IMG/VR virus record: IMGVR_UViG_3300046616_000431
Coordinates: 48,363 to 112,362 of that record
Strand: one strand, 5' to 3'
Length of the DNA stretch: 64,000 nucleotides
Origin: a virus
Part shown: one piece after another, positions 11,720 through 64,000 of the stretch
Numbering within the stretch: position 1 is the stretch's first letter
Layout of the letters: each line of letters starts with the position of its first letter
Notes under the pieces: model-generated
Told to the model about the DNA's origin: nothing
Seen by the model: only the letters and a program-made list of their open reading frames with translations
The model's database searches: none
Position numbers and translations under genes: made by a program

Positions 11720-13053
11720 TGACGACTCCCATCCACCAGGGCAGCGGTCTGTACGGCTCGGCCGTCGTCTCCGGCGGCCTGATGCCGCTGCAGGCCGACA
11801 TCACGGTGCCGCAGTCGACGGCGCTGGCCAGCGGTACCGGCATGCTGGTCGCCGACACTGCCATCACCGAGCAGCTGCGGCACTTCCCTGAGGACGTCTA
11901 CGACCTCCGGCCGACGTCGCACCTGGTGCGGCTGATGCAGGTCCTGCTCGGGGAATCCGGCGTCGGCCAGCTGCGCAAGCGTCTCCTCCTGGCCCAGCTG
12001 CAGACGCTGTCCTCGTCGGGGGCGAGATTCTTCGATCTCGACCGCTTCTACGGTGCCCTGTTCGGGGCAACTCGGGCCGACTCCGAGCAGCTGACGATCA
12101 ACCCCATGGAAACGTCGACCGCGACGGCCGCCGAGTGGGAGTCAATCGAGGCTGCCGATGCGTCATTCCGGGACCGGATGACCGCACTTGCCCAGTCAAT
12201 TGCCATGGGCGGCACCGTGCCGGGCCTGACGGCGGCGGCCGAGGCCATCACCGGCGTCGAGTGCGACGTCTTCGAGTCCTGGGCACTCCTGGACGCCACG
12301 GACGATCCCCAGGCGGCCGGGCACGACTGGACGTGGATGGAGGGCGCTGCCAGCTGGGCCGACTACGAGGGCCAGATCTGGGGCGCGCTGGAGGGGACGC
12401 CGTTCTACGGCCGCTCCGGCGTGCTGACGCGCAGCGAGCTGCTGGTCCGGGTGAACCGGGACTACCCCTCGACGCCAGAGGGCCGGTCCCAGCGCACGAG
12501 CGACGAGTGGGCGCTGGTGCGGGTGCTGGAGCGGATCAAGCCCGCGCACATCCTTCTCACGGTCGACACGCAGGGGACCTCGGCGCTGCTGCCCCGGGGT
12601 ATCGCGGCGATCAGGTCCGACAGTGAGCACTGGGAGATCGCCACCCGGGTCACGCCGGGCCAGGTCCCCCTGGGGGCAACCCCCTACCCGCTGTCGCCGC
12701 AGCAGGAGGCAGACGGCATTGACTCCGGGTCATCCCGGGTATTGCCCCGGCCTCCGCTGGTCACGAAGATCGGCGACGAGTGGGCGTACGGGTCACAGAT
12801 CCCGACGTGCCGGACGTACTCGGTCACGCCGACGGACGACGTCGACTTCACCGAGCCTGGACCGGTCCCTGACTCCGGACTTGACTCAATTGACCAGTCA
12901 GTTGTCTGGCGTGACGGGACAAGCACGGTCTACCGGGCGACGCTCGGGTCAATGGACCCGCTGCTGAGCCAGGCGGCCCGCGCGGGCGCCGACGGCGTCC
13001 TGGTGGCGAACCCGTACAGCGGCGACCGTCGGATGGTCCTGACGACCGACTGA
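11719..13053 (+). CDS. Baseplate wedge protein (gpI/gp48-like)
   Basis: Follows baseplate J; 'DASFRDR...GGT..G' and 'LERIKPAH' motifs. Confidence 0.7.
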   Translation: MTTPIHQGSGLYGSAVVSGGLMPLQADITVPQSTALASGTGMLVADTAITEQLRHFPEDVYDLRPTSHLVRLMQVLLGESGVGQLRKRLLLAQLQTLSSSGARFFDLDRFYGALFGATRADSEQLTINPMETSTATAAEWESIEAADASFRDRMTALAQSIAMGGTVPGLTAAAEAITGVECDVFESWALLDATDDPQAAGHDWTWMEGAASWADYEGQIWGALEGTPFYGRSGVLTRSELLVRVNRDYPSTPEGRSQRTSDEWALVRVLERIKPAHILLTVDTQGTSALLPRGIAAIRSDSEHWEIATRVTPGQVPLGATPYPLSPQQEADGIDSGSSRVLPRPPLVTKIGDEWAYGSQIPTCRTYSVTPTDDVDFTEPGPVPDSGLDSIDQSVVWRDGTSTVYRATLGSMDPLLSQAARAGADGVLVANPYSGDRRMVLTTD

Positions 13054-19783: not shown

Positions 19784-19793
19784 GCGAGATGTC

Positions 19794-21107
19794 ATGCCAC
19801 TGACCTCAGTACCCGGGCAGGTCTCGGCCGGACCCATCGACGGCTATTTCCGCGACGATGCAGGAGACGGCACGCTCGGCCTGCCCGACTGCTCGCTGGT
19901 GCCGTACGCGTACGCACCGCTGCTCGGCGAGGCCGACTCCGAACCGTCCTGGTCCATCGACCAGTTCCGCAAGGGGGCCTTCGCTGGCTTCAAGGGCTCC
20001 CCGGACGGCTTCGGCGCGCTGCGCTCGGTAGGCGGGCCCCGGGGCTCGGTGGCCATCTCGGTGATCCCGGCCGCGTCCGGGGTGAAGGACACCAGCCCGG
20101 ACGGGAGCCGGGCGCCGGACTACACCTGGGGGCCGCGCGACTTCGCCATCGCGGTCCGGCATCCGGGCACGCCGGACTGGGCTGCGGCCAACACGCGGAC
20201 GTACGTGGCTTTCACGCAGGCCACGAACAGCGTCGGTCTCCGGATCACGACGGCCGCCGCCGAGGGCCCGTGGGACGCCGAGCTGGCCGACTCCGCTGCG
20301 ATCTCCCTGACAGGCCTGGTCAACCTGTGGGACGGGAACCCCCACACGTTCTCCGTCGCCACGTACGGGCAGAACGTGTACTGCCTGATCGACAGCATCA
20401 TCGGGATCCCCTTCCGGGCACCCCGGGCCTACAAGCGCAACCCCAACGGCACAACCGACACGGCGACCTTCTCGAACATGCCGAGCACCGGCAACTACAT
20501 GGGCTACGACTGCAGGGGCCTGGAGAACTCGCTGTGGTCGTGGGCGTCGCTCCAGCCCGGAAGCGGAGATTTTTTCTTCCACGACATGGGCCCCACGGTG
20601 GTGCAGGCCGCACCAGCGACGACGGCCACGCCGACGACGACAGCCTCCGGGGAGGCCTGGTCCGTCACTGGCACCGCGACGGCGAGCAAGGACGGCCTAC
20701 TGCTGGCCGCCAACGCCACCGCGTCCTTCAACGTCGACCAGCCGTACGGCGTGCTGTGCACCCGCTGGGGCCCGGCCACGGCCGAGGGCGGCCTGGTCTT
20801 CCGCAAGGTGGACGCGAACAACCACTACATGGTCACGTCCACCGGGGTCTGGCACAAGATCTCCGGGACGCTGACGCGGTTCCACACGTTCACCACGCCG
20901 CTGACCTCGGGCACCCACGTCGCGGTCAGGAACGTGAAGGACACGATCCGCGTGTACATCAACGGCGTCTCGGTCGCGTTCTACATCGCCGACTTCCACA
21001 AGACGGGCAAGGGCGTGGGATTCCTGTCCCCGGCCGCCGGTACCAGCCAGTTCCGCTACATCGCCTTCCAGCCGATGGTCACCGACCCGATCCTGCCCAC
21101 CGTCTGA
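19794..21107 (+). CDS. Putative receptor-binding protein (ConA/LamG-like beta-sandwich)
   Basis: C-terminal 'GLVFRKVDANNHY...IRVYING...G.GVGF' pattern; in fibre cluster. Confidence 0.55.
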   Translation: MPLTSVPGQVSAGPIDGYFRDDAGDGTLGLPDCSLVPYAYAPLLGEADSEPSWSIDQFRKGAFAGFKGSPDGFGALRSVGGPRGSVAISVIPAASGVKDTSPDGSRAPDYTWGPRDFAIAVRHPGTPDWAAANTRTYVAFTQATNSVGLRITTAAAEGPWDAELADSAAISLTGLVNLWDGNPHTFSVATYGQNVYCLIDSIIGIPFRAPRAYKRNPNGTTDTATFSNMPSTGNYMGYDCRGLENSLWSWASLQPGSGDFFFHDMGPTVVQAAPATTATPTTTASGEAWSVTGTATASKDGLLLAANATASFNVDQPYGVLCTRWGPATAEGGLVFRKVDANNHYMVTSTGVWHKISGTLTRFHTFTTPLTSGTHVAVRNVKDTIRVYINGVSVAFYIADFHKTGKGVGFLSPAAGTSQFRYIAFQPMVTDPILPTV

Positions 21108-21116
21108 GAGGCCGTC

Positions 21117-23171
21117 GTGGACCGCTGCCACCTGTACATGCCGCTGATTGACTCCTCCGGCGAGACCTACCCGTTCGCCGAAGTGACGCTGCTCGACTCC
21201 GAGACGGGCACCCCCATCGAGGTCCCTGTCTACCTGGAGCCGATCGGCGGTGCGCCGCAGACGTGGCCCATCCTCGTCGACCCGGCCGTCGTCGACCTGT
21301 GGCTCGACGCCCCGGCGCGGGTCACACTCCAGGCGCTCCTCCCCGGCGGATCCAGTTTCACCCGCGCTGGCGTGGACATCTCCCCGGCCCCGGCCGCCAC
21401 CGTCCGCACCAGGGAGCCGCTGCACATCGGCTCGGCCGAGGGCCTCAACAGCGACGCCATGCTGGCGGTTTCACCGGACGGCTCGGCGGTCTGGCAGGTC
21501 CTGGACGTGCTCCGAGACCACCGGCACGGCGGCGACGCCCCCGACTCGACCTCGCTCGGCATGGCGGACCTGCAGGACATCTACCCGGGCCAGACCTGGC
21601 TCGGCGGCAGCATCAGCGGCAACCAGGGCACCGACGCCACCGTCATGGGCTACCAGGCCCAGCCCAACGCCGACGAGGCAACCGCGATCGGCCGGGGCGC
21701 GACGGCGGACCTGCACGGTGTCGCTGCCGGAGTCACCTCCACCGGCAATGTCGACGCCGTCGCCCTGGGATTCGGAGCCACCGCGTCGAAGCCGGAGCAG
21801 ATCACTCTCGGCCGCAACGCCAGTGCCGCAGCTGGTCCGAACAGCGCCATCGTGCTCGGCTCCGGGCTGGCCGCCGAGGCCACGACCGACACCAAGGCCC
21901 GGGGCGTGCACCTGCTCACGGACGGCAGCGTCGTCCTGGGCAACGGTCTCCTGCCGGACCTGAGCTGGGTGGGCGACTCATACACCGCGATCCTCGGCAG
22001 CGCGGTCGTACCCCGGTACTTCGCCGCCCGGGACGCCGTCTCTCTCGCCGGGCCGGTCAACCCCCTCGGCTTCTACGGAGGCGCCGGGGACTACCGGCCG
22101 ATCGTCGATGTCAGCGGCATCACGACGGCGACGGTCGGCCGCGACGCGCTGATGTCCCTGATGGCCGCGCTGAACGACCTGGGGATGATCTACGCAACCC
22201 AGGGGGCGATCGACGACGAGCTGGCCGACCTGACGAAGGTCACCGCCTCGGCCAACGTCGTCGTGGAGACTGGAGACGCCGACGGCTCCAAGGCGGGCGA
22301 CACCAACCGGATCAAGCGCAACGCCGCCGGGGTCGGCACGGTCACGTACTTCCGGTCCGCTGGCATCCGGGACTTCCTGGCACGGGCCTTCACCTGGCAC
22401 CAGCCGTCGAACCCAGACAACCACGAGGCCGAGATCATCGCGCACGCCTCGCCGGACAACGTCACCTGGACGCCGGTCAAGATGACGTGGCGCCCGCTGG
22501 TGGCCACGACGGCCGACTGGTACCAGAGCTGGATCTCCAACACGCGCCCCATCCCGGCCGGGATGAAGTACGTGCGCCTCACGCTGGGCGTGAACGTCCA
22601 GGTGTGGACGCCGCAGCTCGGCCGGATCATCGTGCGGGCGTACCCCCGCCGGAACCTGGTCCTGAATCCGACCCTGGGCACGGGCATCGCCAACACGAGC
22701 TACCACGGGTACAACGTCACCCGCGCCTACGACACCACGCAGGGCTTCAGCGGCACCAACTCCATCAAGATCACCAATGGCTCCACGCAGAGCGGCGGCC
22801 CCTCCTTCACCATGGAGCCGGTGTCTGCCCAGCAGATGCTGCAGGCCGGAATCTACGTGAAGCTGCCGACCTCCGGCTTCTCCGCTGGCCAGTTCGTCTG
22901 GCGCTCGGGGACGACGGTGCTGAAGTCGGAGCCCATCACGCCGCCGACGACCGGCGCGTGGACGCGCTTCACCAGCGTGTACACGCTCGCGGCTGGCCAG
23001 ACCTGCGACAACGTCGCTGTCGTCTTCACGCCGACGACAGCGAACCTGTCCTGGAACGCGGACGCAGCCATCGCGGTCGTGGGAGACACGATGCCGGGCT
23101 TCTTCGACGGCACGTCCACGGGAGCCGCCTGGGAGGGCGCCCCCCACGCCTCGGTCTCCCGGCTGGTCTGA
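21117..23171 (+). CDS. Tail fibre protein with YadA-like repeats and two C-terminal carbohydrate-binding-like modules
   Basis: Shared N-terminal domain; 'RNLVLNP...WTRF...FFDG...W.G.PHAS.S' fibre-tip module. Confidence 0.7.
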   Translation: MDRCHLYMPLIDSSGETYPFAEVTLLDSETGTPIEVPVYLEPIGGAPQTWPILVDPAVVDLWLDAPARVTLQALLPGGSSFTRAGVDISPAPAATVRTREPLHIGSAEGLNSDAMLAVSPDGSAVWQVLDVLRDHRHGGDAPDSTSLGMADLQDIYPGQTWLGGSISGNQGTDATVMGYQAQPNADEATAIGRGATADLHGVAAGVTSTGNVDAVALGFGATASKPEQITLGRNASAAAGPNSAIVLGSGLAAEATTDTKARGVHLLTDGSVVLGNGLLPDLSWVGDSYTAILGSAVVPRYFAARDAVSLAGPVNPLGFYGGAGDYRPIVDVSGITTATVGRDALMSLMAALNDLGMIYATQGAIDDELADLTKVTASANVVVETGDADGSKAGDTNRIKRNAAGVGTVTYFRSAGIRDFLARAFTWHQPSNPDNHEAEIIAHASPDNVTWTPVKMTWRPLVATTADWYQSWISNTRPIPAGMKYVRLTLGVNVQVWTPQLGRIIVRAYPRRNLVLNPTLGTGIANTSYHGYNVTRAYDTTQGFSGTNSIKITNGSTQSGGPSFTMEPVSAQQMLQAGIYVKLPTSGFSAGQFVWRSGTTVLKSEPITPPTTGAWTRFTSVYTLAAGQTCDNVAVVFTPTTANLSWNADAAIAVVGDTMPGFFDGTSTGAAWEGAPHASVSRLV

Positions 23172-25247: not shown

Positions 25248-26645
25248 TCAGGCGGCCTGGGCGAGCTGGTTCCTGCGGACCAACTCGTCGTAGCTGGGCT
25301 CCTCTTCGAGCCAGAGCAGCCTGCCGTCCGAGGCGATGACCAGGTCGGAGATGATCTCGCCGGTCGCCGGGTCGATGACCTCGTTGCCCCACTGCCAGCG
25401 CTGGTCGACCTCGTCGCCACGGACGGGCGTCACGTCGGCCATACGGCGCTCCCGCAGGCGGGGGAGGGTGATCTCGTGCCAGATCAGCCGCTGGGCCTTG
25501 TGCAGCTCCAGGCGGCGCTGAGAGGTCCCCTCGGTGCCCACCTGGGCCGCCACCGCATCCCAGCCGTCCCAGGCCTCGGAGAGCGCCTCCTGGGCCGTCT
25601 CAGTGAGCGCCCAGAGGCTTCCGTCCCGGGTCACCAGGTCGTACTCAGCAAGGCGCTTCAGGTGGCGGTACGCGGTGGCGACGCTGAGCATGGCGCTCTC
25701 GGTCAGTTCGGCCGCCGTCTGCCTGTCGTTCCTGCTCAGGGCGGCCAGCAGCTTCAACGAGGAGGCGCCCAGACCCCGGTGGGCGAAGGCATCGAGGGAC
25801 ATCAGCCGAGAGATGACGGCACCGTCCAGGTCACCGTTTCTCAGGTTCGACACACTCGATTGCGCCCCCCCAGGCTGCGCCCCCATGGGGTTGTGTCGAC
25901 GCTGAGAACGGTCTTCAAAAATCATCCACTGGGACCCCTTCTCACCCGAGCCGGACTCCATCAGCCGGACCCAGCCCTTGAGGCGCTGCGTGGTGGCGAT
26001 GTAGGCGGTCCTGGCGGTGCACCCAGCGATCTCGGCGGCCTCGCGGTAGGAGAGCGTGTAGACGCGGCCCCCAGCGCGGTGGGCGGCCTTCCAGTGGGCC
26101 ATCAGGACGCGGAGGTTGGTCGATCCGGCAGTGCCGCGCCAGGAGGCGCTGGTGATCCGGTCCCGCAGCTCGATGAGGTCGATGACGGCGTCCTGGCGGG
26201 AGCCGATGGCCACCCCGGACCCGACGCACTTGACCGCGCGCTGCCAGACCTTGTCGATGTACTTGTGGGCCGAGGGCATGCTCATGTTGCGGACGTGGTT
26301 GCCGCCGGTGGACGGCCAGTCGATGAGCGCCTCGGTGAACTGGTCCCGGGTCCAGCGGTGCCGGACGGCAGCAGCAGCGACGGCTGCGGTGATCGCGTGG
26401 CCGTGCTTCGACTTCGCGGACTGGAGGCTGGAGGCGTCGGTCGAGCCGTAGCGGCTCTCGGTGTCGCCGTCGATCAACACGCCTGCCATACGCGGCGAGA
26501 GGGCCGGGAAGCGGTGCGACCAGTGGTTCGACTGCAGGTCACGCGGGGACGCGTCGCGCAAGGTCGCGGTTGCGGAAACGACACCGAGATTCAGGTCACT
26601 TTCGGCGTGCCGCACGGGCTGAGAGATACTAAAATGAGCAAGCAC
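25248..26645 (-). CDS. Putative plasmid-type replication initiator (two winged-HTH regions)
   Basis: 'LSYREAAEIAGCTARTAY' and 'TAAELTESAMLSVATAYRHLKRL' HTHs; isolated minus-strand gene with long non-coding flanks and an internal iteron-like element. Confidence 0.55.
   Translation of the reverse strand: MLAHFSISQPVRHAESDLNLGVVSATATLRDASPRDLQSNHWSHRFPALSPRMAGVLIDGDTESRYGSTDASSLQSAKSKHGHAITAAVAAAAVRHRWTRDQFTEALIDWPSTGGNHVRNMSMPSAHKYIDKVWQRAVKCVGSGVAIGSRQDAVIDLIELRDRITSASWRGTAGSTNLRVLMAHWKAAHRAGGRVYTLSYREAAEIAGCTARTAYIATTQRLKGWVRLMESGSGEKGSQWMIFEDRSQRRHNPMGAQPGGAQSSVSNLRNGDLDGAVISRLMSLDAFAHRGLGASSLKLLAALSRNDRQTAAELTESAMLSVATAYRHLKRLAEYDLVTRDGSLWALTETAQEALSEAWDGWDAVAAQVGTEGTSQRRLELHKAQRLIWHEITLPRLRERRMADVTPVRGDEVDQRWQWGNEVIDPATGEIISDLVIASDGRLLWLEEEPSYDELVRRNQLAQAA
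25838..25908 (-). repeat. Copy 2 of the origin-like element, inside the Rep-like CDS
   Basis: Inverted near-copy of 24869-24938, falling in the linker between the two HTH regions. Confidence 0.85.
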
Positions 26646-27162
26646 GGAGTGCTCGGCCCTTCTCTTTGGTCAGACGGAGAGGCCGGACCACCGTGAGGGC
26701 GATGGTCAGACCGCATAGGTCGCGTCGCCTGGCGGGAACCCGTCCTGGCGGGTTGGGTTCCTTTTCCTGCTCGGCTTGCTTGGCGGCTTGACCGAGTGGA
26801 TGAGACCTCCCAGGCGGAGGTCGAGCCTTACGTGAGGGGCGCGGGAACCTGTGGCGGGTTCCTAGCGCCCCTCCAGCTTTTCTACGTGCTGTCCATGATC
26901 GAAAGCTCCCTTGGCGGGGCCGGGCAGCGCGCTGACCGGCGAAGCGTGGTGGTGGGCCGAAGGTGGCGGGTACGGGCCCAGGGCACATTGAACATCATCA
27001 GACCCCGGTATGGGGAGTCAGGGTGCGATATAGCACTCCTGACGGCGTGTCGGCTGCCCGCCAGATCCGAACGACGAGTTCCGTGAGAACGCGGCCCTGC
27101 TTCGGTAGCGTGCGAAATCCGCCAAGATAACCCGCCACGCGTTGCCTAGGGGCCCATCCGCC

Positions 27163-29253
27163 ATGTCTTCAGCCCTGCCTGGAACCTTCCTCTCCACCCA
27201 AGCCGTCCTCTCCCAAGCGCTGCCGAACTACCGCGAACGACCGCAGCAGTTGAACCTCGCCCTCCACATCGAGCACACCTTCATGGACCGCCTGGAGGAG
27301 GAGATCGAGTCGGAGGGGGCCCCGCGCGTCCTCATGGCCGAGGCCGGGACCGGCACGGGCAAGTCGCTCGCCGCGATGATCCCGCTCATCCACGCCAGCC
27401 GCCGGGGCGGCCGGTACATCGTCGCCACCTCGACGATCGCCCTCATGAATCAGTACATTCGTACCGATTTGCCGATGCTGGAGCGCGAACTGGGCAAAGT
27501 GGGCGTCAACTTCACCTGGGCACCGCTCAAGGGAATTTCCAACTTTGCATGTGCCGTCAAGCTCGCCGAGGGCCCGGCCATCGCGAACCTCAAGCCCCTG
27601 CTCGACGAGCTGAACGCCACCGACGACGAAGGCCAGCTCACGCACACCGGCGACAAGGACGACATCCAGACGCCGATCGACCACCGCACCGAGTGGAAGC
27701 TCCTGTCGGCAGGCCAGGACGAGTGCCCCGGCCGCTCCAAGTGCGCCATGGCCGAGAGCTGCTTCGGCATGAAGCACAAGGACCAGGCCATGGAGGCGGG
27801 CATCGTCGTCACCAACACGGCCGTGCTCATGCTGGACACCAAGCTCTACCGGCAGACCCGCCGGACCAGCGCGACCGGCGAGGGCATGCACATCCTGCTC
27901 GGCGACTACGACGGCCTGGTCGTGGACGAGGCGCACGAACTGGAGTCGACCGCGACTTCGCACCTCGGCATCGACGTGAAGCAGGGCGGCCTGATCCGCT
28001 ACACGGACCAGGTCGTGAACTTCATCAACACCCACAGCGAAGACGACGCCGGAGCGCAGCTCCAGCAGGACAAGATCCTCGCGCACCTCGCTGACGTCGG
28101 CGACGGCATCCTGGAGGTACTGGGCAAGGAGGAGCGGGCCACCCTCGGCACCGACTTCATCGTCGAGAACTTCTCCTCGTTCGAGTCGCTCTTCGTCGAG
28201 CTGATGGACCTGATCGCCAAGCTGCGCAAGACCAAGATCGACCGAGGGGACGCCGAGCGGTACGAGGACGTCAAGGCGCGGCTCAGCACCCAGGGGAGCA
28301 ACTACCTCGCCCACCTCAAGGAGATCCTGCTGGCCGAGCCGGACAAGGTCGTGCGCTGGGCCGAGACCTACGGCGACCGCCGCCGCGAGGGAGGCCCGCG
28401 CTGGGCCATCAAGACCGCGCCCATCGAGGTCGGCGACTACCTCCGCGAAGAGCTGTGGAGCCGGGTGCCCTCGGTCCTGATGTCCGCCACCCTCAGCGCC
28501 GGAGTCGGCCGGTCCCGCTTCGACTACATCCAGCGCTCCCTCGGCCTGCAGGGCGCCGAGATCCTCGACGTCGGCACCCCCTTCGACTACCCCAACCAGG
28601 CCCTGCTGTTCGTCCCGGAGTCCAGCGTGCCGTCCCCGAGCCCCAACACCCGGGGCGCCTGGGAGACCTGGGTCCGCGAGGCCACCTTCAAGCTGGTGCA
28701 GATGGCCGGAGGCGGAGCCATGCTGCTCTACACCTCCCGCAAGGCCATGGATGACGCCTACGACGCGCTGTGGCCGCGCCTGCAGGACATCGGCTGCCAG
28801 AGCTTCCTGCAGGGCAGCGACCTCACGAACAAGGAGATCGCAGCCCGCTTCCGCGACGACGAGGACAGCGTCCTGTTCGGCCTGCGCAGCTTCATGACGG
28901 GCATGGACTTCCCCGGCCGGACGAACCGGCTGGTCGTCGTGGACAAGCTGCCCTTCGCCGTGCCGACGGACCCGATCCACATGGCCCGAGAGGACGCCAT
29001 CCGCAACCGCGACGGCAACCCCTTCATCGACCTGGCCATCCCCACCATGACCCTCACGCTGGAGCAGGCCTTCGGCCGCCTGATCCGCAGCACCGACGAC
29101 CGGGGTGTCGTCGCGATCATGGACTCGCGCCTCTCCTCGACCTGGTGGGGCCAGAAGATCCAGGCGGCGCTGCCGCCCGCGCGGCGCACCACGGCCTTCG
29201 CCGACGTGGAGGACTTCTACGCCCAGGACTCCGCGCTGGAACTCGCCTCCTGA
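27163..29253 (+). CDS. dinG: DinG/YoaA-family ATP-dependent helicase
   Basis: 'RPQQ','EAGTGTGKS','VVDEAH','SATL','PFDY','GMDFPG','DKLPF','QAFGRLIR' motifs; Fe-S cysteines. Confidence 0.92.
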   Translation: MSSALPGTFLSTQAVLSQALPNYRERPQQLNLALHIEHTFMDRLEEEIESEGAPRVLMAEAGTGTGKSLAAMIPLIHASRRGGRYIVATSTIALMNQYIRTDLPMLERELGKVGVNFTWAPLKGISNFACAVKLAEGPAIANLKPLLDELNATDDEGQLTHTGDKDDIQTPIDHRTEWKLLSAGQDECPGRSKCAMAESCFGMKHKDQAMEAGIVVTNTAVLMLDTKLYRQTRRTSATGEGMHILLGDYDGLVVDEAHELESTATSHLGIDVKQGGLIRYTDQVVNFINTHSEDDAGAQLQQDKILAHLADVGDGILEVLGKEERATLGTDFIVENFSSFESLFVELMDLIAKLRKTKIDRGDAERYEDVKARLSTQGSNYLAHLKEILLAEPDKVVRWAETYGDRRREGGPRWAIKTAPIEVGDYLREELWSRVPSVLMSATLSAGVGRSRFDYIQRSLGLQGAEILDVGTPFDYPNQALLFVPESSVPSPSPNTRGAWETWVREATFKLVQMAGGGAMLLYTSRKAMDDAYDALWPRLQDIGCQSFLQGSDLTNKEIAARFRDDEDSVLFGLRSFMTGMDFPGRTNRLVVVDKLPFAVPTDPIHMAREDAIRNRDGNPFIDLAIPTMTLTLEQAFGRLIRSTDDRGVVAIMDSRLSSTWWGQKIQAALPPARRTTAFADVEDFYAQDSALELAS

Positions 29254-55550: not shown

Positions 55551-55583
55551 ACGGCCCTCCCGGAACGCCCGGGAGGGCCGTTT
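55551..55583 (+). terminator. Intrinsic terminator
   Basis: 13-bp stem ACGGCCCTCCCGG / CCGGGAGGGCCGT followed by a short T-run. Confidence 0.65.
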
Positions 55584-55585
55584 GC

Positions 55586-55618
55586 TGTACACGGGCTCCC
55601 GGGCGCCCCCAAGGGGCG
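55586..55618 (+). promoter_or_regulatory. Candidate late promoter (TGTACA...AAGGGGCG)
   Basis: TGT 55586, AAGGGG 55611 (25 bp), directly after a terminator. Confidence 0.65.
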
Positions 55619-55632
55619 AGGAGGGCGCCCCC

Positions 55633-57804
55633 ATGGCCAGCAACAACGAGGACCGTTCGCCGCTTGCGAACTTCGACCCCACCGCGATCCACCAGCTCTT
55701 TCTCGGCCTGGAGATCCCGGACCCGATCACGTTCGTGGTCTCCCCGCAGTACCTGAACCGGCCGAACCTCTACCCGCGCCAGGCCACCCTCCTGAAGTGC
55801 TTCTTCCTGCGCGAGGACCTCTTCACGCCGTACGACTACCAGGTCGTCGCCGAGTGGGACGAGCAGTACCGCACCGCGAAGACGACCAACGAGCAGCGCG
55901 CCGCCCAGGCCCAGCTCGACATGGTCGCCGAACTCGACGGCGACCCCGCCATGGCCCAGGTCCTCGCCGACCTCGAACAGCTGGAGCTGAACGAGGACCG
56001 GCCGAAGATGCCCATCGGCGGCACCCCGGACCTCCTGCGCCGGATGCGCGCGGCCAAGGCGCTGGGCTACCAGTGGTTCCGCGAGATCCTCCTGGTGATG
56101 GGCCGACGCGCAGGCAAGGGCCACATCTCCGCCCTGGCCATGGCGTACGTCCTGTGGAACTACATGGCCAAGGGCGACCCCCAGGACCACTACGGCGTCG
56201 ACCGCGACAAGAAACTCGCGTGCCTGATCTTCGCCGGTAAGCGCGAGCAGGCCAAAGCCAACCTCTGGCGCGACCTCGTCAACGTTGTCACCGGCGGCCC
56301 GTGCTTCGCCCCCTACATCGCCAGCAGCCTCGGCGAGAAGCTCTCCGTGTACGCACCGCACGACTTCATCCGCATCGACGAGATGATGCAGCGCGGCATC
56401 AAGACCGCCCTCGACATGGCCACCTTCGAGATCCTCCCGAAGGAGTCCACCCTGATGGCAGGCCGTGGACCTGCGTCTTTCATCATGGGCTTCGACGAGA
56501 TGGCCCACGTCGTGGCCTCCGGCGCGAACCGCTCGGCCGAGGAGGTCTACACCGCCTCCGTCCCCTCCCTTGACCAGTTCAAGAAGGACGGATTCCTGAT
56601 CGAGCCGTCGTCTCCCTGGCAGATGACCGGCCAGTTCTACTCGAACTACGAGCGCTCTGTCGCCGTCGAGCCGGACGGCGAGCCGACCTACCCGGCCATC
56701 ATGATGATCCAGCTCGCCTCCTGGGACATCTACCTCGACTGGCAGATCGCCCACGAGCTGCCCCTCTTCCCCGAGGGCTTCACCGGCGACAACGACGAGT
56801 ACGAGAACGTAGAGGCGCCCGGCTTCCGCGTCCTCAAGAACGCCATCCAGACCTACGACGACCAGATGCGGAAGCTGGAGAAGGCCGACCCCGACACATT
56901 CGCCGTCGAGCGCCGCGCTCAGTGGGCCACCGTCATGGACGCCTACCTCGACCCCGACAAGGTCGACGCCGTGTTCGGCGCCTGGGCCGGACGCCCGCCC
57001 CAGTACGGCGGCCAGCTCATCGTCCCCACCACCGAGGGCATCCTCTCCAACGAGTACAAGGGCCACGCCGACCCCAGCTCGGTCAACTGCCGCTTCGGCA
57101 TCGCCTGCGCCCACGTCGAGTACGACCTGCAGGGCCGCCCCCACGTCGTCTTCGACAAGATCCACCACTTCGACCCGGCGGACTTCCCCAACCACACGAT
57201 CGACTACGAAGAGGTCGAGGACTGGATCTGGGACGGCATCATCGCCCCCTTCCAGCCCGCCGAGTTCACCTTCGACCAGTACAACTCCGTCGGCTCCACC
57301 CAGAAGCTCGTCAAGAAGGTCGCCAAGGCCCGGCTGCCGAAGAAGGTCAACGTCTTCATCCGCGACGCGAACGCCACCTACAACTGGCAGGTCGCCGAGT
57401 GCTTCAAGGCCGCGATCAACATGGGCCTGGTCCACGCCCCGGAGTACGAAGAGGGCGCCCTGGAGCTCAAGTTCCTCCAGAAGGCACCCAAGGCCAACCG
57501 CGTCGACCACCCGACCGTCGGCCCGGTCCAGACCAAGGACATCGCCGATGCGATCATGATTACAACGTGGTCCCTGATCGGCGAGTGGATCACCGGCTAC
57601 AAGGAGATGCTCAACGCGGCCAGCGCCAGCGGAGCCCTCATGGGCGGCCTGCACGGATCAAGCCCCAGAACCCCCGAAGCCGCAGCTCCGGACCAGGACA
57701 GCCAGGCCCAGTTCGACGCCCTGCGCCGCTTCAGCCGCACCCGCACCGGCCGCGACGGATGGGAAGCCGGACTGGGCCGCCACCGGACCGGATACCGCCG
57801 GTAG
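55633..57804 (+). CDS. terL: Terminase large subunit
   Basis: 'LYPRQ','GRRAGKG' Walker A, 'QA', 'GFDEMAH' Walker B, nuclease 'HADPS','TFDQ','KDIADA'. Confidence 0.88.
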   Translation: MASNNEDRSPLANFDPTAIHQLFLGLEIPDPITFVVSPQYLNRPNLYPRQATLLKCFFLREDLFTPYDYQVVAEWDEQYRTAKTTNEQRAAQAQLDMVAELDGDPAMAQVLADLEQLELNEDRPKMPIGGTPDLLRRMRAAKALGYQWFREILLVMGRRAGKGHISALAMAYVLWNYMAKGDPQDHYGVDRDKKLACLIFAGKREQAKANLWRDLVNVVTGGPCFAPYIASSLGEKLSVYAPHDFIRIDEMMQRGIKTALDMATFEILPKESTLMAGRGPASFIMGFDEMAHVVASGANRSAEEVYTASVPSLDQFKKDGFLIEPSSPWQMTGQFYSNYERSVAVEPDGEPTYPAIMMIQLASWDIYLDWQIAHELPLFPEGFTGDNDEYENVEAPGFRVLKNAIQTYDDQMRKLEKADPDTFAVERRAQWATVMDAYLDPDKVDAVFGAWAGRPPQYGGQLIVPTTEGILSNEYKGHADPSSVNCRFGIACAHVEYDLQGRPHVVFDKIHHFDPADFPNHTIDYEEVEDWIWDGIIAPFQPAEFTFDQYNSVGSTQKLVKKVAKARLPKKVNVFIRDANATYNWQVAECFKAAINMGLVHAPEYEEGALELKFLQKAPKANRVDHPTVGPVQTKDIADAIMITTWSLIGEWITGYKEMLNAASASGALMGGLHGSSPRTPEAAAPDQDSQAQFDALRRFSRTRTGRDGWEAGLGRHRTGYRR

Positions 57805-58011: not shown

Positions 58012-58042
58012 GAGCCCCCCGGCTGCTAGCGCCGGGGGGCTC
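58012..58042 (+). terminator. Hairpin terminator
   Basis: 12-bp stem GAGCCCCCCGGC / GCCGGGGGGCTC. Confidence 0.65.
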
Positions 58043-58048
58043 CATTCA

Positions 58049-58092: not shown

Positions 58093-59748
58093 GTGACGGA
58101 CATCAGCGCGACGAGCTTCTTCCGGCGGCACGCTGCCGAGACTATCGAACCTGCGTTCGAACCGGAAGCGGATTCCGCGAACCCTGGCACCCAGAGCCCG
58201 GAATGGATTGCCGAGTGGGGCCACGGCTCCAAGCCCTGCCCCTGCTGCAAGGGCGCAGGCGAGCACGACACCGGCTTCGAGTGCTCCCTGTGCGACGGCG
58301 GCATGGCCGTCGGCAAGGACACCCCCGACGGCTACCGCTGCGACGGCACCCTCCCCGACGGCGGCCACGGCAAGACGGCCGCCTACACCGAGCACCCGCT
58401 GCCCGAGCAGGTCAGGTCGTGGAAGAACACACAGTGGGACGTCCCCGATGAGGTCACCAGCCCGATCCACCGGGGCCTGACCCTGCCGCTGTCACCGAAA
58501 GACCACGAGTACGTCCACAACCTCTCCATCCCCACCGGCAGACGCGCGGCCCACATCGTCGGCCTCGTCCACTCCCAGGGCGGCCTGGGGCGCCACTGGA
58601 CGACTGACGCGGATACCGCAGGCCACTTCTCCCACACCGGCGCAGGAGAACTGCAGCACCACCCCCACCTGCTCTCCGTCACCCTGCACGCGCACCCGCC
58701 AGCCGCCGAGCACATCGAGCACGACCCCGTCGAGCTTGGCCGCATGGGAGTCCAGGGGCAGTCTGTTGAGAGCGAAGTCCCCCTGAAAGCGGCCTCGCCG
58801 GTGCGCTTGTACGGCGTGAGCTGGCAGAACACCCGCGACTCCACCCAATGGGGCAACCACATCGCCACCGCCGATGCCAAGGGCATCACCCGGAGCGCCT
58901 CCGCCGACACCCCCGTGCCGGACAACACCAAGCCGTACGAGCACAAGCACCCCTGGCTGCCCCGCGACCACTTCTTCGCCCCCACCCCCAAGGGCCTGGA
59001 CGAGCGGCTCTTCGACGGCGACCACATGCGCCCCGACGTCCGCCGCCACATCCTCGGCCTGATCAACAGCCTCTGGGCCCCGCGCTACGGCGACTCCTGG
59101 CAGACCTGGGCCCGCGTCTACCTCGCCGGATCCGAGGCCAGCCACTTCTACGGCAACAACGACCTCGACGTCCTGATCGGCATCGACCACGACGCCCTCA
59201 ACCAGCACGTGGACGCCTTCTGTGGCGAGCCGGACGCCGTCATCGACGAGCGCCTGACCGACGAGCTGCGCGAGCACCTCAACGACGACGCCCGCATGCT
59301 GCCCGGCCCCGGCGGCGAGACCGGCCCCTGGGAAAGCACTTTCTACGTGAACCCGGCCAGCTATGACATACGGGACATCAAGCCGTACGCCGCCTACGAC
59401 ATCACCCGCGACGAGTGGGCCGTCCGGCCGGTCGAGGTCCCCGACGACTTCGGCCCCGAGAAACTCCCCGAGTCGACCTGGGACGTCTTCGAGGCCCTGC
59501 AGACCCTGATCAAGGCCGTCGCGGAGCTGCCCGAAGGAACCCGGGAGCGCGAGGGCGCCGCTCTGTACGATTACCTCCACACTGACCGCCACAGTGCCTT
59601 CGGCCCGGACGGAACAGGCCTCTACGACCCGGCCAACGCGGTCTGGAAGGCCCTCGACAAGGCCCCCGGCAAGCCCCTGCAGCAGCTTATCGACTGGAAG
59701 CACGCCCACGACGGCGCGACCGCCAACGCCCAGGAGACCGCAGCATGA
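58093..59748 (+). CDS. Multidomain protein: Zn ribbon + ADP-ribosyltransferase-like domain + Pol-beta-family nucleotidyltransferase
   Basis: CPCC/CSLC; 'HRG...HWT...ESEV'; 'LAGS......DLDVLI' NTase motif; GGAGG RBS before GTG 58093. Confidence 0.7.
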   Translation: MTDISATSFFRRHAAETIEPAFEPEADSANPGTQSPEWIAEWGHGSKPCPCCKGAGEHDTGFECSLCDGGMAVGKDTPDGYRCDGTLPDGGHGKTAAYTEHPLPEQVRSWKNTQWDVPDEVTSPIHRGLTLPLSPKDHEYVHNLSIPTGRRAAHIVGLVHSQGGLGRHWTTDADTAGHFSHTGAGELQHHPHLLSVTLHAHPPAAEHIEHDPVELGRMGVQGQSVESEVPLKAASPVRLYGVSWQNTRDSTQWGNHIATADAKGITRSASADTPVPDNTKPYEHKHPWLPRDHFFAPTPKGLDERLFDGDHMRPDVRRHILGLINSLWAPRYGDSWQTWARVYLAGSEASHFYGNNDLDVLIGIDHDALNQHVDAFCGEPDAVIDERLTDELREHLNDDARMLPGPGGETGPWESTFYVNPASYDIRDIKPYAAYDITRDEWAVRPVEVPDDFGPEKLPESTWDVFEALQTLIKAVAELPEGTREREGAALYDYLHTDRHSAFGPDGTGLYDPANAVWKALDKAPGKPLQQLIDWKHAHDGATANAQETAA

Positions 59749-62700
59749 CCCACACCGACGCGACCTCCTTCTTCCGGCAGGCCGCCTGGTCCGATGGGGA
59801 GGGCCTCTCCGACAAGACCCGGGCCGCCGTCGACCAGGCCGAGGGCGACTGGCACACCCACCGCCAGTACCTCGCCGAAGACCACATGAACAAGCAGCTC
59901 GACCCCGAGGCCAACCGGCTCGCCCACCAGGGCCACGCGCAGCGCACCGCCGACAAGATCACCGACGCCGAAGGCCTGCCCCGCATCAAGGTCCTCGTCC
60001 ACGACTCGCCGAACGTCTCCGGACTAGGCAAGGCCGCCGACGGCTCGCCAGTCATCGCGCTCGGCGAGAACTCCCTGAAGCACAGCACGCTCATCCACGA
60101 GCTGACCCACCACAAGCGCCAGCCCGCCGAAGACGACCCCGACCACAACGCCGGGGGTTTCTACGGCGACTACATCGGCATGCTGCAACGCCACCACCCC
60201 GACCCGGACGCCTGGACACACATGATGGCCGCCAACAAGCTCGCCGTGGCCCACATGCGCAACAACCCGGACAAGTTCCCTCCCCGCACCGCCACGGCGT
60301 TCTTCCGGCAGGCCAGCGAGCCGCAGGAGTGGTTCCACGGCACCTCCAACTCCACGCCGACCACTCACTTCGACTTCGACAAGGAGCGCGGCCACCAGGA
60401 CGAGACCGGCCTGCCGCGCTACTGGAACTCCCACCTTGGCGCGCACTTCACCTCGGTCCACTCCGTAGCCAGGGACGTCGCCAGGGAGTGGAGTCACCGA
60501 GGCGGGCACATCACGCACGCCCACCTGGACATGGCGAACCCCAAGCACTACGGGACCGAAGACGACATGGACCACGAGGCGTACAACTGGGCCGAGAAGA
60601 ACGGCTACGACCCCATGGCGCACAGGGACAAGAACCAGCTGCACGGCCTGGGCGGCCTGCTGACCGTGCACCCTCAGGCCCGGGAGATCGCCCACGGCTT
60701 CCGCGACCACCTCAAGGCCCAGGGCCACGACAGCGTCACCTACGGCAACACCATCGAAGGCCCCTACGCCCACAAGTGCGCCATCGCCTTCCACCCAGAC
60801 CAGATCCACGTCACCGGCACCCACGGGATCAACGAACCCTGTCCCCCCGGCGGACACACCGCCACGGCGTTCTTGCGGGAGGCGGGGCAAAGTGGCGAGT
60901 TGCCCGAGGGTCTGTCCTTCAAGTACTACGGGCCCGGTCACTTCCCCTCGGTGGGCAATCGCCCATTCCACTGCCTGGTGGCACACCATCCCGACGCACC
61001 AGACAAAGCATGGCCGAACCAAGCGGGCCACCTCGTCTGGTGGGGGCCGGACGGCGGCATAGATTCGGTGCACGTGCAGCCGGATTTCCGGCGTCGCGGA
61101 GTGGCGACCGAACTGTGGAATCGGGCGAAGGAGATGGAACCGCGTCTCCACCACAGCACCCTCCAGACAGAGGACGGCAAGGCGTGGGCACCACACGTCT
61201 CCTCGAAGCACACCGCCACGGCGTTCTTCGCACAGGCGGCCACGGACGGCTACAATCCCACTACTCAGAAGGAGGGGGAGCATGGAACCGATGAGTCCCG
61301 ACGTTCAGCAGGAGATCCTGCGCCGCGCGGCCACGCCGGGCGACCGGCGGCAGGTCAGCCTGAACCAGCTCCGCTGCACCGTCGCGAAGCGACTGCAGAA
61401 GGCGTAGAGCGCCACCCCGAGCTGCAGGGAGACCTGGACCGGCTCGGGGGCGGCGCCCGCCACGTCCAGAACACCATCGACGCCCTGCACCAGGGCGGCT
61501 CCGGCGTCACCACCTACCCTCTGTCCCACCCGCTGGAGGGCTGGCACGCCGCGCTCACCGGCGGCGGCCACCAGGTAGTGCACCGCCACGACCCCGAGAC
61601 CGGCTCCCTGCACGTCGGCTACGCCGGGCATAACATCTCCGACGCCGAACAGCGCCTGGGCGCAACCGAGTCCGGCTCCAAGGCCCTGCCGGTCGACTTC
61701 CACGGCGGCGCCGAGAAGGACTTCGACAAGCTGCACCCCGAGGTCCAGGACAAGGTCCTCAACACCATCGACCGCCTCTCGCGCGGCGAGCAGCACAGGG
61801 ACGACCACGCCCTGCACGGCAAGGACATGGTGAACGGCGGCTGGCGCTCGGCCCGAGCCGACTTCCTGCACCGCGTCACCCACCGCTTCGAGGACGCCGA
61901 CGGCAACCCCACCTCGCACGAGAACGCCTCCCGGCTGTTCATCGGCCACGTCGGCCCCCACAACTATGAAGCCGCCGAGAAGCGCCTGTCCTCCGAGAAG
62001 CGCCTGTCCTCCCTGACCGCGCACCTCAAGAAGGCCTTCCAGGGCGACACCCCCGAAGGCACCCTCGTGCGCGGGATGAACGTCTCCCTCCCCGCCGACA
62101 AGCATTCGTTTATCCACGACGAGCGCCAGCCGCTGCCCGCCCGCGCGCACATGCTGCTCTCGGAACTGAAGAAGCCCACCGGCTCCATCTCCAACGAGGA
62201 ACTCAAGGGCTCCAGCGGCGGCCTGGGGGAGTTCTGGACCCGCAACCACCTCGTCTCCGACGACGCCGCCGCCGCACAGCACGAGGAGCGCCCGCCGGGA
62301 CAGCGCTCCACCACCGTCACCCTCCACGCCCGCGAGCCGGACGGGAAGCACTTCTGGAACGAGATGACCGGCGGCCACGGCGACTACGAGGGAAACTGGC
62401 GCGTCCCGCTGCACCCCGGCACCCCGCTCGGCGTCCACGCCATCACCTGGGGCGAGCCCGGCGGCACCCAGCACCACTACGACTTCTCCCACCCCGTCGA
62501 CAAGCACGCCACCAAGGGCACCGACAACGAGGGCCACCTGGTTGAGCTGGACCCCATCGACGGCTGGCAGCATGCCGACGGCTCCGTCTCCCACGACGAC
62601 GGCACCACCATCTCCGACCACCCCGTCAAGGAGGCGTCAGCCTCCGCTGAAGGAGACCACGCGGTGGTCTACCACGGCACGACAGCGGATCGGGTCGACT

Positions 62701-63554
62701 CCATCCGGCAGAACGGGCTCCGGCCGCCCAAGGGGAAGGAAGGCTCCGCCCGCTGGTTCATGCTCACCGACAGCCGTGAGCGGGCCGCCCACGAATCCGG
62801 GGGCAATGCCGGGAACGGGAAGCAGCGAGTCGTCCTGGAATACCACCTTCCCCGGGACCAGGCCTTCCGTCGTGAACCCGGGGTGCCGAGGCGGAACAGC
62901 GACGCCTACCTCTGGGAGGGCCACCCCTACATGGGCAGCACGGCCCACGCCATCATGAATCCGATCCCGGGGGAGCACCTGCACGCCGTGCATCCCGTAG
63001 AGCCCGAGGACGGCCAGCGCAAGGAAGCGGCGGCAGTCGACAACTCCACAGGCGTGATGGTGGCCTTGGTGCCGCCCCGCGAGATCGCCGAGCAGCTCGC
63101 CATGAAGGACGGCCAGCCGGTCGACGACCTCCACGTCACCCTCGCCTACCTCGGCAAGACCTCCGACTACACGCCCGAGCAGCTCAAGCTGCTGCCGCAG
63201 ATCGTCAGTTCATGGGCGCTGCGCCAGAAGCCGGTCGACATGCGCATAGGCGGCACGGGCAAGTTCAACAGCAGCCACAAGGGCCAGCACGTCCTGTACG
63301 CCGCTGTCGACATCCCCGGCGGCGCGCAGATGCACGCCGACCTCGCCCGCTATCTGCAGGGCCACGGATACGAACTCCCGAGCGAACACGGCTGGACACC
63401 ACACCTCACGCTGGCGTACGTTGATCGCCACTTCCGTTTCATGCCACATCTGGATGAGCACCGCTGGACGGCCGACCAGGTCGTCACCGAGATCGGGCAG
63501 ACCCGCCACCAGGCCCGCCTCGGCACCATCCCCAGCGGAAGACACCAGCTCTAG
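59745..63554 (+). CDS. Polyvalent protein: zincin, ART-PolyVal-like, GNAT, two RelE-like, two further ART-like and a 2H phosphoesterase domain
   Basis: HELTH; 'FHGT...GAHFT...NP...GHDSV...AFHPDQI'; 'V.PDFRRRGVAT'; 'AEKDFDKL...H.LHG...R..H...VGPH'; 'YHGT...IRQNGL'; two HxT motifs (HVTL, HLTL). Confidence 0.8.
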   Translation: MTHTDATSFFRQAAWSDGEGLSDKTRAAVDQAEGDWHTHRQYLAEDHMNKQLDPEANRLAHQGHAQRTADKITDAEGLPRIKVLVHDSPNVSGLGKAADGSPVIALGENSLKHSTLIHELTHHKRQPAEDDPDHNAGGFYGDYIGMLQRHHPDPDAWTHMMAANKLAVAHMRNNPDKFPPRTATAFFRQASEPQEWFHGTSNSTPTTHFDFDKERGHQDETGLPRYWNSHLGAHFTSVHSVARDVAREWSHRGGHITHAHLDMANPKHYGTEDDMDHEAYNWAEKNGYDPMAHRDKNQLHGLGGLLTVHPQAREIAHGFRDHLKAQGHDSVTYGNTIEGPYAHKCAIAFHPDQIHVTGTHGINEPCPPGGHTATAFLREAGQSGELPEGLSFKYYGPGHFPSVGNRPFHCLVAHHPDAPDKAWPNQAGHLVWWGPDGGIDSVHVQPDFRRRGVATELWNRAKEMEPRLHHSTLQTEDGKAWAPHVSSKHTATAFFAQAATDGYNPTTQKEGEHGTDESRRSAGDPAPRGHAGRPAAGQPEPAPLHRREATAEGVERHPELQGDLDRLGGGARHVQNTIDALHQGGSGVTTYPLSHPLEGWHAALTGGGHQVVHRHDPETGSLHVGYAGHNISDAEQRLGATESGSKALPVDFHGGAEKDFDKLHPEVQDKVLNTIDRLSRGEQHRDDHALHGKDMVNGGWRSARADFLHRVTHRFEDADGNPTSHENASRLFIGHVGPHNYEAAEKRLSSEKRLSSLTAHLKKAFQGDTPEGTLVRGMNVSLPADKHSFIHDERQPLPARAHMLLSELKKPTGSISNEELKGSSGGLGEFWTRNHLVSDDAAAAQHEERPPGQRSTTVTLHAREPDGKHFWNEMTGGHGDYEGNWRVPLHPGTPLGVHAITWGEPGGTQHHYDFSHPVDKHATKGTDNEGHLVELDPIDGWQHADGSVSHDDGTTISDHPVKEASASAEGDHAVVYHGTTADRVDSIRQNGLRPPKGKEGSARWFMLTDSRERAAHESGGNAGNGKQRVVLEYHLPRDQAFRREPGVPRRNSDAYLWEGHPYMGSTAHAIMNPIPGEHLHAVHPVEPEDGQRKEAAAVDNSTGVMVALVPPREIAEQLAMKDGQPVDDLHVTLAYLGKTSDYTPEQLKLLPQIVSSWALRQKPVDMRIGGTGKFNSSHKGQHVLYAAVDIPGGAQMHADLARYLQGHGYELPSEHGWTPHLTLAYVDRHFRFMPHLDEHRWTADQVVTEIGQTRHQARLGTIPSGRHQL

Positions 63555-63589: not shown

Positions 63590-64000
63590 ATGAGCACCGT
63601 CACGACTTCCAGGATCCCCGACTACATCGAGCGCGCCAGGCTGGACGCGGACCGCGTGGGGTGGGACGTGGTCTGTACGTCCAAGAGCGTCACCATCACC
63701 GCGCCCGGCTGGAGGAAAGGCCTCAGCTTCTCGCTGACCAAGCCGCCCACGGCCGACCAGGTCCGCATCCAGCTGGACAGGGCCGGTCTGTACAGTGCCC
63801 TGAAGAAGCTGCAGTCCGAGAGTGCCACGGAGCTGCCCGAGCCCGAGCCGGAGCACGGTATGTCCGAAGCGAAGACCGACACGCCCCAGAAGGCCGGGCA
63901 CGTCTGCCCCGAGTGCCAGAATCCCTTCAAGAGCCCGGCGGGTCTGGCAACCCATCGACAGAAGGTGCACGGCGTGCCCGGATCGTCCAAAGCAACCCTT
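63590..64000 (+). CDS. C2H2 zinc-finger protein (runs off the window)
   Basis: Manual translation from ATG 63590 is open to the window end and contains CPECQNPFKSPAGLATHRQKVH. Confidence 0.7.
   Translation, partial: MSTVTTSRIPDYIERARLDADRVGWDVVCTSKSVTITAPGWRKGLSFSLTKPPTADQVRIQLDRAGLYSALKKLQSESATELPEPEPEHGMSEAKTDTPQKAGHVCPECQNPFKSPAGLATHRQKVHGVPGSSKATL

Follow-up and report, generated by a model that had tools for sequence, protein, structure and literature searches.

A two-part peptide at the module joints of two polyvalent effector proteins of a large Streptomyces-type phage

Directly downstream of the large terminase gene (terL) of a large, Streptomyces-type phage lie two coupled genes, here called gene 1 and gene 2, each of which encodes a chain of unrelated, effector-type modules. 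The genes lie in a 64,000-nucleotide stretch of DNA (the window; positions 48,363 to 112,362 of the IMG/VR virus record IMGVR_UViG_3300046616_000431), which forms the right-hand end of a virus contig of 112,362 bp (G000); window positions are used throughout unless contig positions are stated. Here, we describe a short peptide that begins both proteins and recurs at the joints between their modules. It has two parts, a basic-x-Ala element and, directly behind it, a Phe-Phe (FF) element, which we tentatively read as a cut site of the head-protease type followed by an effector-specific label.

Gene 2 follows directly on gene 1 with an ATGA overlap, in agreement with the initial annotation of the window, which had described two coupled genes after terL. 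The division of gene 2 follows from homology breakpoints against 187 relatives and from the AlphaFold model, and 43 relatives of gene 2 show a shuffled module order. Taken together, Pfam matches, homology breakpoints and AlphaFold models resolve 8-9 modules in gene 2 and 3-4 in gene 1; the combined inventory comprises a zincin-like domain, 3-4 ADP-ribosyltransferase (ART)-like modules, a GNAT domain, two RelE-fold domains, a nucleotidyltransferase (NTase)-like domain and a 2H phosphoesterase. The proposal of polyvalent effector-type proteins with about 11, mostly enzyme-like domains is borne out; its count has to be raised to about 12-13.

The FF element is exclusive to these two genes. Across the six frames of the 112,362-bp contig there are five matches to [AT]T[SA]F[FL], each of them within an effector gene. 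With a position-specific scoring matrix (PSSM) trained solely on copies from other genomes, the five sites score 16-36 bits, and the runner-up among 194,458 positions reaches 10.3 bits on the wrong strand. The coordinates noted initially proved correct throughout on rechecking, and the motif indeed stands at both N-termini and at domain junctions (two starts, three joints and a decayed sixth copy at a fourth joint). In gene 2 the copies lie at residues 6, 183, 373 and 491, with the decayed one at about 756, and the internal copies (183, 373, 491, ~756) coincide with homology breakpoints at residues 188, 378, 485/510 and 767. A copy inside a folded domain had been named beforehand as a reason to abandon the idea of a junction signal. 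The copies of gene 2 lie outside such domains, in segments with AlphaFold confidence (pLDDT) below 50, between confident domains and directly ahead of them (Table 1).

Table 1. Genes, modules and joints of the two-gene locus, followed by neighbouring features, in window positions (M1-M8, modules of gene 2; ORF, open reading frame)
Feature	Position	Strand	Basis or remark
Gene 1, polyvalent protein 1, 551 aa	58093..59748	+	FF tag, Cys-rich zinc-ribbon-like stretch, ART-like module, constant C-terminal NTase-like domain
FF tag copy 1, SATSFFRRHA, gene 1 N-terminus	58105..58134	+	PSSM 16.2 bits; kept in 13 distinct orthologous starts
Short joint KTAA, upstream of gene 1 ART-like module	58372..58383	+	homology starts cluster at residue 125
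Short joint RSASAD, upstream of NTase-like domain	58891..58908	+	homology border
Gene 2, polyvalent protein 2, 1269 aa	59745..63554	+	translationally coupled to gene 1, ATGA overlap 59745-59748
FF tag copy 2, DATSFFRQAA, gene 2 N-terminus	59757..59786	+	PSSM 29.9 bits
M1, zincin-like metallopeptidase, residues 20-178	59802..60278	+	HELTHH at 60096-60113; confident AlphaFold domain
FF joint copy 3, TATAFFRQAS, preceded by R	60288..60317	+	PSSM 35.7 bits; breakpoint residue 188; pLDDT <50 at 179-192
M2, ADP-ribosyltransferase (ART-PolyVal), residues 193-369	60321..60853	+	PF18760, E 4.9e-8, above curated cut-off
FF joint copy 4, TATAFLREAG, preceded by H	60858..60887	+	PSSM 24.8 bits; breakpoint residue 378
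M3, GNAT acetyltransferase, residues 377-490	60873..61214	+	PF00583, 21.4 bits against a cut-off of 20.7
FF joint copy 5, TATAFFAQAA, preceded by KH	61212..61241	+	PSSM 34.5 bits; breakpoints residues 485/510
Nested 41-codon ORF, another frame inside gene 2	61282..61407	+	own strong AAGGAGG ribosome-binding site
M4, two tandem RelE/YoeB/ParE-fold domains, residues 549-635 and 647-740	61389..61964	+	VIA-align
Decayed FF joint, LTAHLKKAF, about residue 756	62013..62039	+	breakpoint residue 767
M5, ART-like, residues 767-924	62043..62516	+	confident AlphaFold domain; hRG...HD...GGhG.FW signature
Short joint KHAT	62502..62513	+	homology starts and ends accumulate at residues 901-940
M6, small conserved GTDNEGH...DGW.H.DGS module, residues 922-962	62508..62630	+	homology segment 916/922-965
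Short joint KEAS	62628..62639	+	motif count, homology map
M7, small Arr/PARP-like ART (lead only), residues 967-1086	62643..63002	+	Atlas search
Short joint KEAA, before the 2H domain	63021..63032	+	33 homologue alignments begin at residue 1093
M8, constant C-terminal 2H phosphoesterase (LigT-like), residues 1096-1269	63030..63551	+	PF13563 E 4.9e-12, PF02834
terL, large terminase gene	55582..57804	+	longest ORF; phrog_2 terminase large subunit, E 3e-9
G+C-rich inverted repeat, terminator-like hairpin lacking a T run, between terL and gene 1	58013..58043	+	sequence reading
Downstream ORF, C2H2-type motif CPEC...H...H	63590..64000	+	runs off contig end

Is it the peptide or the underlying DNA that is conserved? 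The peptide recurs in 16 close homologues (P0004-P0019), both N-terminally and ahead of differing modules, and about 20 relatives keep it in front of one module or another; P0004, P0007 and P0010 have intact copies (SATAYFKQAY, TATAFFRQAV) orthologous to the decayed LTAHLKKAF. In a terminase-anchored sample of 26 viral loci, with terL orthologues on 26 viral contigs at 45-82% identity, most loci with a TerL at least 74% identical and with DNA reaching far enough have a gene 1 that starts MTDIS-A-x-x-F-F-[RQ] and a gene 2 that starts MTE[FH][NS]-A-[TV]-A-[FHY]-F-R. The exception among these close loci is L223, which has a single fused gene starting MTTAAEFFR; a further variant, SVTAFFRE, was read by eye in L129. 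The codons vary among the gene 1, gene 2 and internal copies (Ser AGC/TCC, Thr ACG/ACC, Ala GCG/GCC), and the residues are kept, which argues that the constraint acts on the peptide.

More distant relatives, with a TerL about 52% identical, have one fused gene. Its N-terminus bears a variant of the motif (TLTELF, NLSELF or SLSSFFRSA), and another (RRTLSGLFSQA, RTTLTTLFDS or RTILSMLFDA) stands where the NTase domain meets the 2H domain; the latter is the counterpart of the N-terminal copy of gene 2. Since the fused genes carry the motif between NTase and 2H, the split into gene 1 and gene 2 falls exactly at that joint. Judging by the sequences, the extra modules of gene 2 were inserted behind the split joint, each bringing its own copy of the motif. 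In wider searches, none of 80 metagenome loci found via the 2H domain matched the FF pattern, other large polyvalent proteins (P0050 and others) showed repeated GNAT motifs only and no junction motif, and genome-contig scans found no relative of the gene 2 protein, the DNA pattern giving only chance matches in high-G+C genomes.

The other component of the joints is the short form [KR]-x-A, which the initial annotation had listed at most remaining junctions and called weak evidence on its own. Its over-representation at joints is confirmed, and so is its low information content; it occurs in unrelated proteins as well. The pattern [KR]xA[AST] is found 8 times in gene 2, against 2.5±1.5 in shuffled sequences, with all 8 copies in joints or linkers, and 5 times in gene 1, against 1.1±1.0. 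When 25 family proteins were scored over the 28 residues upstream of breakpoints defined by homology alone, [KR]xA[AST]A was enriched 11.6-fold (22 in 3930 residues versus 14 in 28,947), and four control patterns were flat in the same test. The joints of gene 1 behave alike in orthologues, where KTAA reads GKTAAY or GKTATY and RSASAD reads RLAAAD, RNATAD or RHASVD; at the KEAA joint of gene 2, residues A1096, A1097 and V1098 are almost invariant. The two forms of joint are related, in that the long motif opens with the short one (R-T-A-T-A-F-F), so that a common frame can be written as [KRH]-x-A-[STA]-A followed either by F-F or by D.

The short form also occurs in proteins of the head region. 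In 9 orthologues of the head protease, GKAAS-K[ST]AAxD follows the protease domain (2 further loci are too truncated to read), and the border of the protease domain in G000 reads GKAAAID. The head maturation protease forms the N-terminal domain of a fusion protein of 899 residues encoded outside the window (contig 26480-29179; L126:8480-11179), which also includes DUF7178 and a long acidic, Cys-rich tail; the K-x-A-A motifs at the border are kept, with insertions between them. In a scaffold-like protein, KTADI is invariant at a border immediately preceded by insertions and deletions, and the head-cluster protein P0190, with its two M5-type modules, has KKAS[AS]LF after an acidic linker. A 952-residue protein of the head cluster (contig 19732-22590; L126:1732-4590) has a long poly-Asp/Ser linker followed by KKDASALF, a SWIM-like CxCKWGAY finger and two ART-like modules paralogous to M5, KKAS[AS]LFSD being kept in its close orthologues. 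A small zinc-ribbon-like protein encoded just before the portal (contig 11137-11661) has an acidic Gly/Pro/Asp linker and the end FEKKESAFRTTAG, which resembles a basic-x-small-A-F joint.

The joints bear marks of recombination. An 18-bp stretch, CACCGCCACGGCGTTCTT, is identical at the three internal FF joints (60287-60304, 60857-60874 and 61211-61228), synonymous sites included; by a rough codon-bias estimate the chance of such identity is about 0.005, which suggests recent duplication or gene conversion. At least one shuffling breakpoint lies inside the motif itself, as seen in P0047 (RLSSLT followed by GFFRQASLPQEW). Considering that the joint is conserved as DNA too, it also acts as a crossover point at which module cassettes are swapped, inserted and, in one case, separated into two genes. 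Two simpler roles were discarded: internal translation starts are ruled out, the three internal copies having no start codon, and a twin-arginine or other export signal is ruled out by the order of the residues, as such signals are generally known.

The modules of gene 2 vary in how firmly they can be named. The HExxH motif of M1 is kept in homologues, and an Atlas search pointed to SprT-like and M78 families, as leads only; M1 has no Pfam match. Over residues 190-364, the fold of M2 is similar to that of one domain in a cyanophage A4 pre-ejectosome chain of solved structure (Z 9.4, 152 residues aligned), and it also matches MbcT and ParT. M3 has more than 100 homologous GNAT segments and a poor AlphaFold model. 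M4 matches Mycobacterium tuberculosis RelE1 (Z 11.6; root-mean-square deviation 1.8, 80 aligned) and RelK (Z 11.3). M5 has paralogues in gene 1 (the middle module) and in the head-region protein P0190 (two modules), and M6 stands before the NTase in distant relatives. For M7, which has low pLDDT and no Pfam match, 22 of the 30 nearest named Atlas clusters were Arr-ms and the rest PARP or Tox-ART-HYD1 (scores 0.90-0.92). Both H-x-T motifs of M8 are invariant, and its match to TIGR02258 falls under that model's cut-off. No confident AlphaFold model was obtained for M3, M6 or M7, which is no proof of new folds, and PDB sequence searches returned nothing for gene 2 or for the head protease domain.

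Gene 1 has no match in Pfam, PHROGs or NCBIfam. Its start is the GTG at 58093, with GGAGG 7 nt upstream; the orthologues agree with this start (ATG ACG GAC ATC AGC) and read MTDISATSFFRQ. Fold comparison of the AlphaFold model gave weak matches of residues 119-278 to ARTs of the pertussis/cholera type (Z 6.3) and of residues 299-442 to MNT nucleotidyltransferases (Z about 4); the G-S...D-L-D motif of the latter, NTase-like domain is invariant. AlphaFold gave no model for the first 113 residues, which again does not prove a new fold. A further small gene may be hidden within gene 2: the nested ORF, which has a conserved counterpart of 41-56 aa at the same spot in 10 related loci, stops 6 nt short of HPELQGDL, the landmark where the RelE-fold modules begin, and may provide the RelE cassette with an antitoxin-like gene of its own.

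The constant domain at the end of gene 2 has a history of its own in head proteins. In other phages the 2H domain is fused to the portal (PF04860) and to a 920-residue 'head maturation protease', so that the 2H enzyme has repeatedly been tied to the head interior; examples of 2H fusions are P0037, P0040, P0042-P0044, P0046 and L235 (Gordonia phage Phinally gp18). Three pointers to a location in the virion can be listed, namely these 2H-head fusions, the likeness of M2 to a pre-ejectosome chain, and the presence of M5-type modules in a head-cluster protein.

As to the genome, the contig encodes terminase, portal, head protease and major head protein, in a virus record, and is a fragment; complete close relatives measure 154-157 kb, one of them with direct terminal repeats, and the full genome behind the 112-kb contig should be about 155 kb. 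The contigs that bear homologues in NCBI come from Streptomyces and measure 147-158 kb, in keeping with an extrachromosomal prophage; soil bacteria of the Streptomyces type are the hosts. The real start of terL is probably an internal ATG near 55630, and the terL DNA matches terminase genes of Rhodococcus phage Finch and of Gordonia phages. A counterpart of the C2H2-type ORF downstream of gene 2 follows gene 2 in L129 as well (11144-12052).

How does this locus compare with systems already described? Polyvalent proteins have been proposed to be packaged and proteolytically processed (Iyer, Burroughs, Anand, de Souza and Aravind 2017, PMC5512222), and the two proteins resemble them in combining ART-PolyVal, zincin-like, GNAT, RelE-fold, NTase-like and phosphoesterase modules in chains in a terminase-portal phage. 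Within the definition of that class, 2-15 unrelated effector-type domains per chain and a phage with packaging apparatus are found here; PF18760, the RelE fold and a GNAT domain at its cut-off represent its signatures, the zincin being identified by HExxH and the Atlas leads and the NTase by a weak match. In the passages of PMC5512222 consulted no cut site or junction motif is named, whereas a two-part peptide is found here that also forms both N-termini. Moreover, unlike the theme of zincin autoprocessing proposed for polyvalent proteins, the motif is kept here in the absence of a zincin. New within the class are the two-part joint, the identity of the joint peptide with the native N-terminus, the gene fission at a joint, and the link to the protease border.

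In phage T4, the gp21 site ends in Glu (L/I-x-E). No Glu is found in the motif of the close clade (ATSFF, TATAFF), and L-[ST]-E-L-F occurs only in distant N-terminal copies. The internal proteins of T4 share only an N-terminal capsid-targeting sequence (PMC3012670), and the present proteins are like them, and like Alt (PMC3012670, PMC9026906), in that a short N-terminal peptide is shared by unrelated cargo; Alt also provides a precedent for an ART as cargo. Here, both proteins and M2-M5 begin with FF, which in relatives precedes different modules, and, as in T4, a cut site and an address would stand together at the N-terminus, as predicted from sequence. Unlike T4, the cargo is fused in tandem and not encoded by separate genes, the site is basic-x-Ala-small-Ala, and the protease is of another family. 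In SPN3US and phiKZ, a single short consensus marks the cut sites of the head protease, both in many internal head proteins and in the protease itself (PMC10052503); likewise, the short form adjoins the protease domain here, standing at the protease's own border and in the scaffold-like protein. The cuts in SPN3US and phiKZ differ in that they mostly remove N-terminal propeptides at a Glu-ending motif, with no tandem modules and no FF-type label.

The gp12 and gp13 proteins of Rhodococcus phage Finch (NC_054724, hypothetical proteins; L001 6105-10084, in the terminase-portal interval), a large actinophage related by its terminase, contain 12 copies of [KR]KTA or AKTA, with one more in the N-terminal region of the portal (at 10645) and none in the other frames of 13 kb. 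Their basic-T-A core is that of R-T-A-T-A, and the differences are that small acidic repeat domains stand in Finch in place of recognisable enzymes, and that there is no FF extension. A junction motif such as VENN in the polymorphic toxin CdiA marks a swappable cassette border and recombination point, and the present joints are similar in being a conserved peptide and DNA element where variable modules are exchanged. Polymorphic toxins differ, however, in their constant N-terminal delivery region, single C-terminal toxin and downstream immunity gene; here the variable modules come before a constant C-terminal domain, there are several joints, and the only immunity-like element at the locus is the nested ORF before the RelE-fold modules.

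Taken as polyvalent effectors, the two proteins would be enzyme chains directed against the host, with variable modules ahead of a constant C-terminal domain. The basic-x-Ala part, [K/R/H]-x-A-[S/T/A]-A, which stands at nearly all joints, would most likely be a cut site of the head protease; this choice of reader follows from the short form at the protease border and in the scaffold-like protein and from the analogy with T4 and SPN3US. The FF part, F-F-[R/A]-Q-A, found only in the effectors and also at both native N-termini, would most likely act as an address peptide in the style of T4 capsid targeting, used for loading or retention in the head or for hand-over at ejection. A cut within the first part would give each released module a native-like N-terminus, x-A-T-A-F-F-R-Q-A. 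That the proteins are packaged and cut, which protease does the cutting and what FF is for are all inferred from these comparisons, and we hold this two-part interpretation tentatively, its chance being somewhat short of even.

Several points weigh against the two-part interpretation. The short form is also present in tail and replication proteins: [KR]xA[AST]A occurs 18 times in 68 ORFs, 5 of the copies being in the two effectors and the others in proteins that include tail and replication proteins, and a PSSM built from the Finch [KR]KTA sites is not specific, as it ranks a replication protein first in the G000 proteome. The p-value of the enrichment at breakpoints is inflated because the proteins are related. 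The family of the protease is known from a PHROG label alone (phrog_18299), with no gp21-type family among the matches, and a literature search found no cut-site paper on related actinophages. Among the head proteins scanned with the PSSM (portal, protease fusion, scaffold-like and major head protein), none has an FF copy, not even a weaker one, so that FF is not a general head-protein site. Many joints in gene 1 and in distant relatives have no FF, and several FF copies are decayed in contig G001, which makes FF dispensable at individual joints. Finally, in complete relatives about 70 kb separate terL and both effector genes from the remaining head genes (the portal-to-capsid cluster), and gene position therefore gives little support for packaging.

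Perhaps the motif is a recombination joint and nothing else, the chains acting uncut and the peptide having no role. The identical 18 bp at the three internal copies, the variable module order with breakpoints inside the motif, and the gene fission at the motif are all what such a joint would leave behind. It is difficult, however, to see why the residues would then be constant while codons differ between paralogous copies and between genomes, why variants would persist at two positions where TerL is only about 52% identical, why native N-termini, which need no in-frame joint, would carry the motif, or why the basic-x-Ala part would be shared with head proteins that are not shuffled; we regard this explanation as unlikely. 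Quite unlikely, in our judgement, is cutting of the joints by the zincin-like M1 at the protein's own N-terminus, before or after delivery and with no involvement of the head protease. Gene 2 does open with a HELTHH domain that is kept in many relatives, and zincin autoprocessing has been proposed as a common theme (Iyer et al., PMC5512222). Against this, P0004, P0007, P0012, P0014 and P0019 have 3-5 FF joints and neither M1 nor HExxH, and the complete relatives G002-G004 (100% complete, one with terminal repeats) keep FF with no M1 homologue anywhere, which makes an in-cis zincin improbable as the universal reader. In addition, distant homologues that bear a zincin have no FF, and the short form stands at the protease border and in the scaffold-like protein too.

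Two further possibilities would remove the peptide from the capsid altogether. The FF element could be a docking motif for a host or phage hub of the clamp or chaperone type in the infected cell. Its shortness, its place in termini and linkers predicted to be disordered or to form short helices, and its hydrophobic pair after small residues are typical of linear docking motifs. Its spacing, however, is unlike that of the known clamp-binding pentapeptide, no partner was identified, and the sharing of basic-x-Ala with the protease border and scaffold-like protein would be left unexplained; we consider this very unlikely. To a similar degree it seems improbable that the proteins are not virion cargo and are made during infection or in a plasmid-prophage state, with any cutting left to a host protease. 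The distance of the genes from the head module in complete relatives favours such a setting, as does the nested antitoxin-like ORF before the RelE-fold modules, which suggests that toxicity is managed in the producing cell. These observations have to be set against the position of the genes directly downstream of terL and their mutual coupling, the fusion of 2H to head proteins elsewhere, the pre-ejectosome look-alike of the ART module, and the joint form shared with the protease and the scaffold-like protein.

Polyvalent proteins make up a large class of weapons of phages and plasmids. The present phage group offers a defined joint, made of a basic-x-Ala site and an effector-only FF peptide. 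If the two-part interpretation is true, this joint would provide the cut-site code of an actinophage head protease together with a candidate capsid-loading tag. It would also account for the exchange of effector cassettes, one of them a toxin cassette with a nested antidote-like gene. A bolder version, which we consider doubtful, is that the joint is a portable cargo code, any enzyme placed behind it being loaded into the capsid within a chain and then released by the head protease, with its new FF N-terminus serving to retain or eject it. If this were true, it would amount to a modular head-loading system, comparable to the cargo peptides of encapsulins, and would explain the gain and loss of effector cassettes in these phages.

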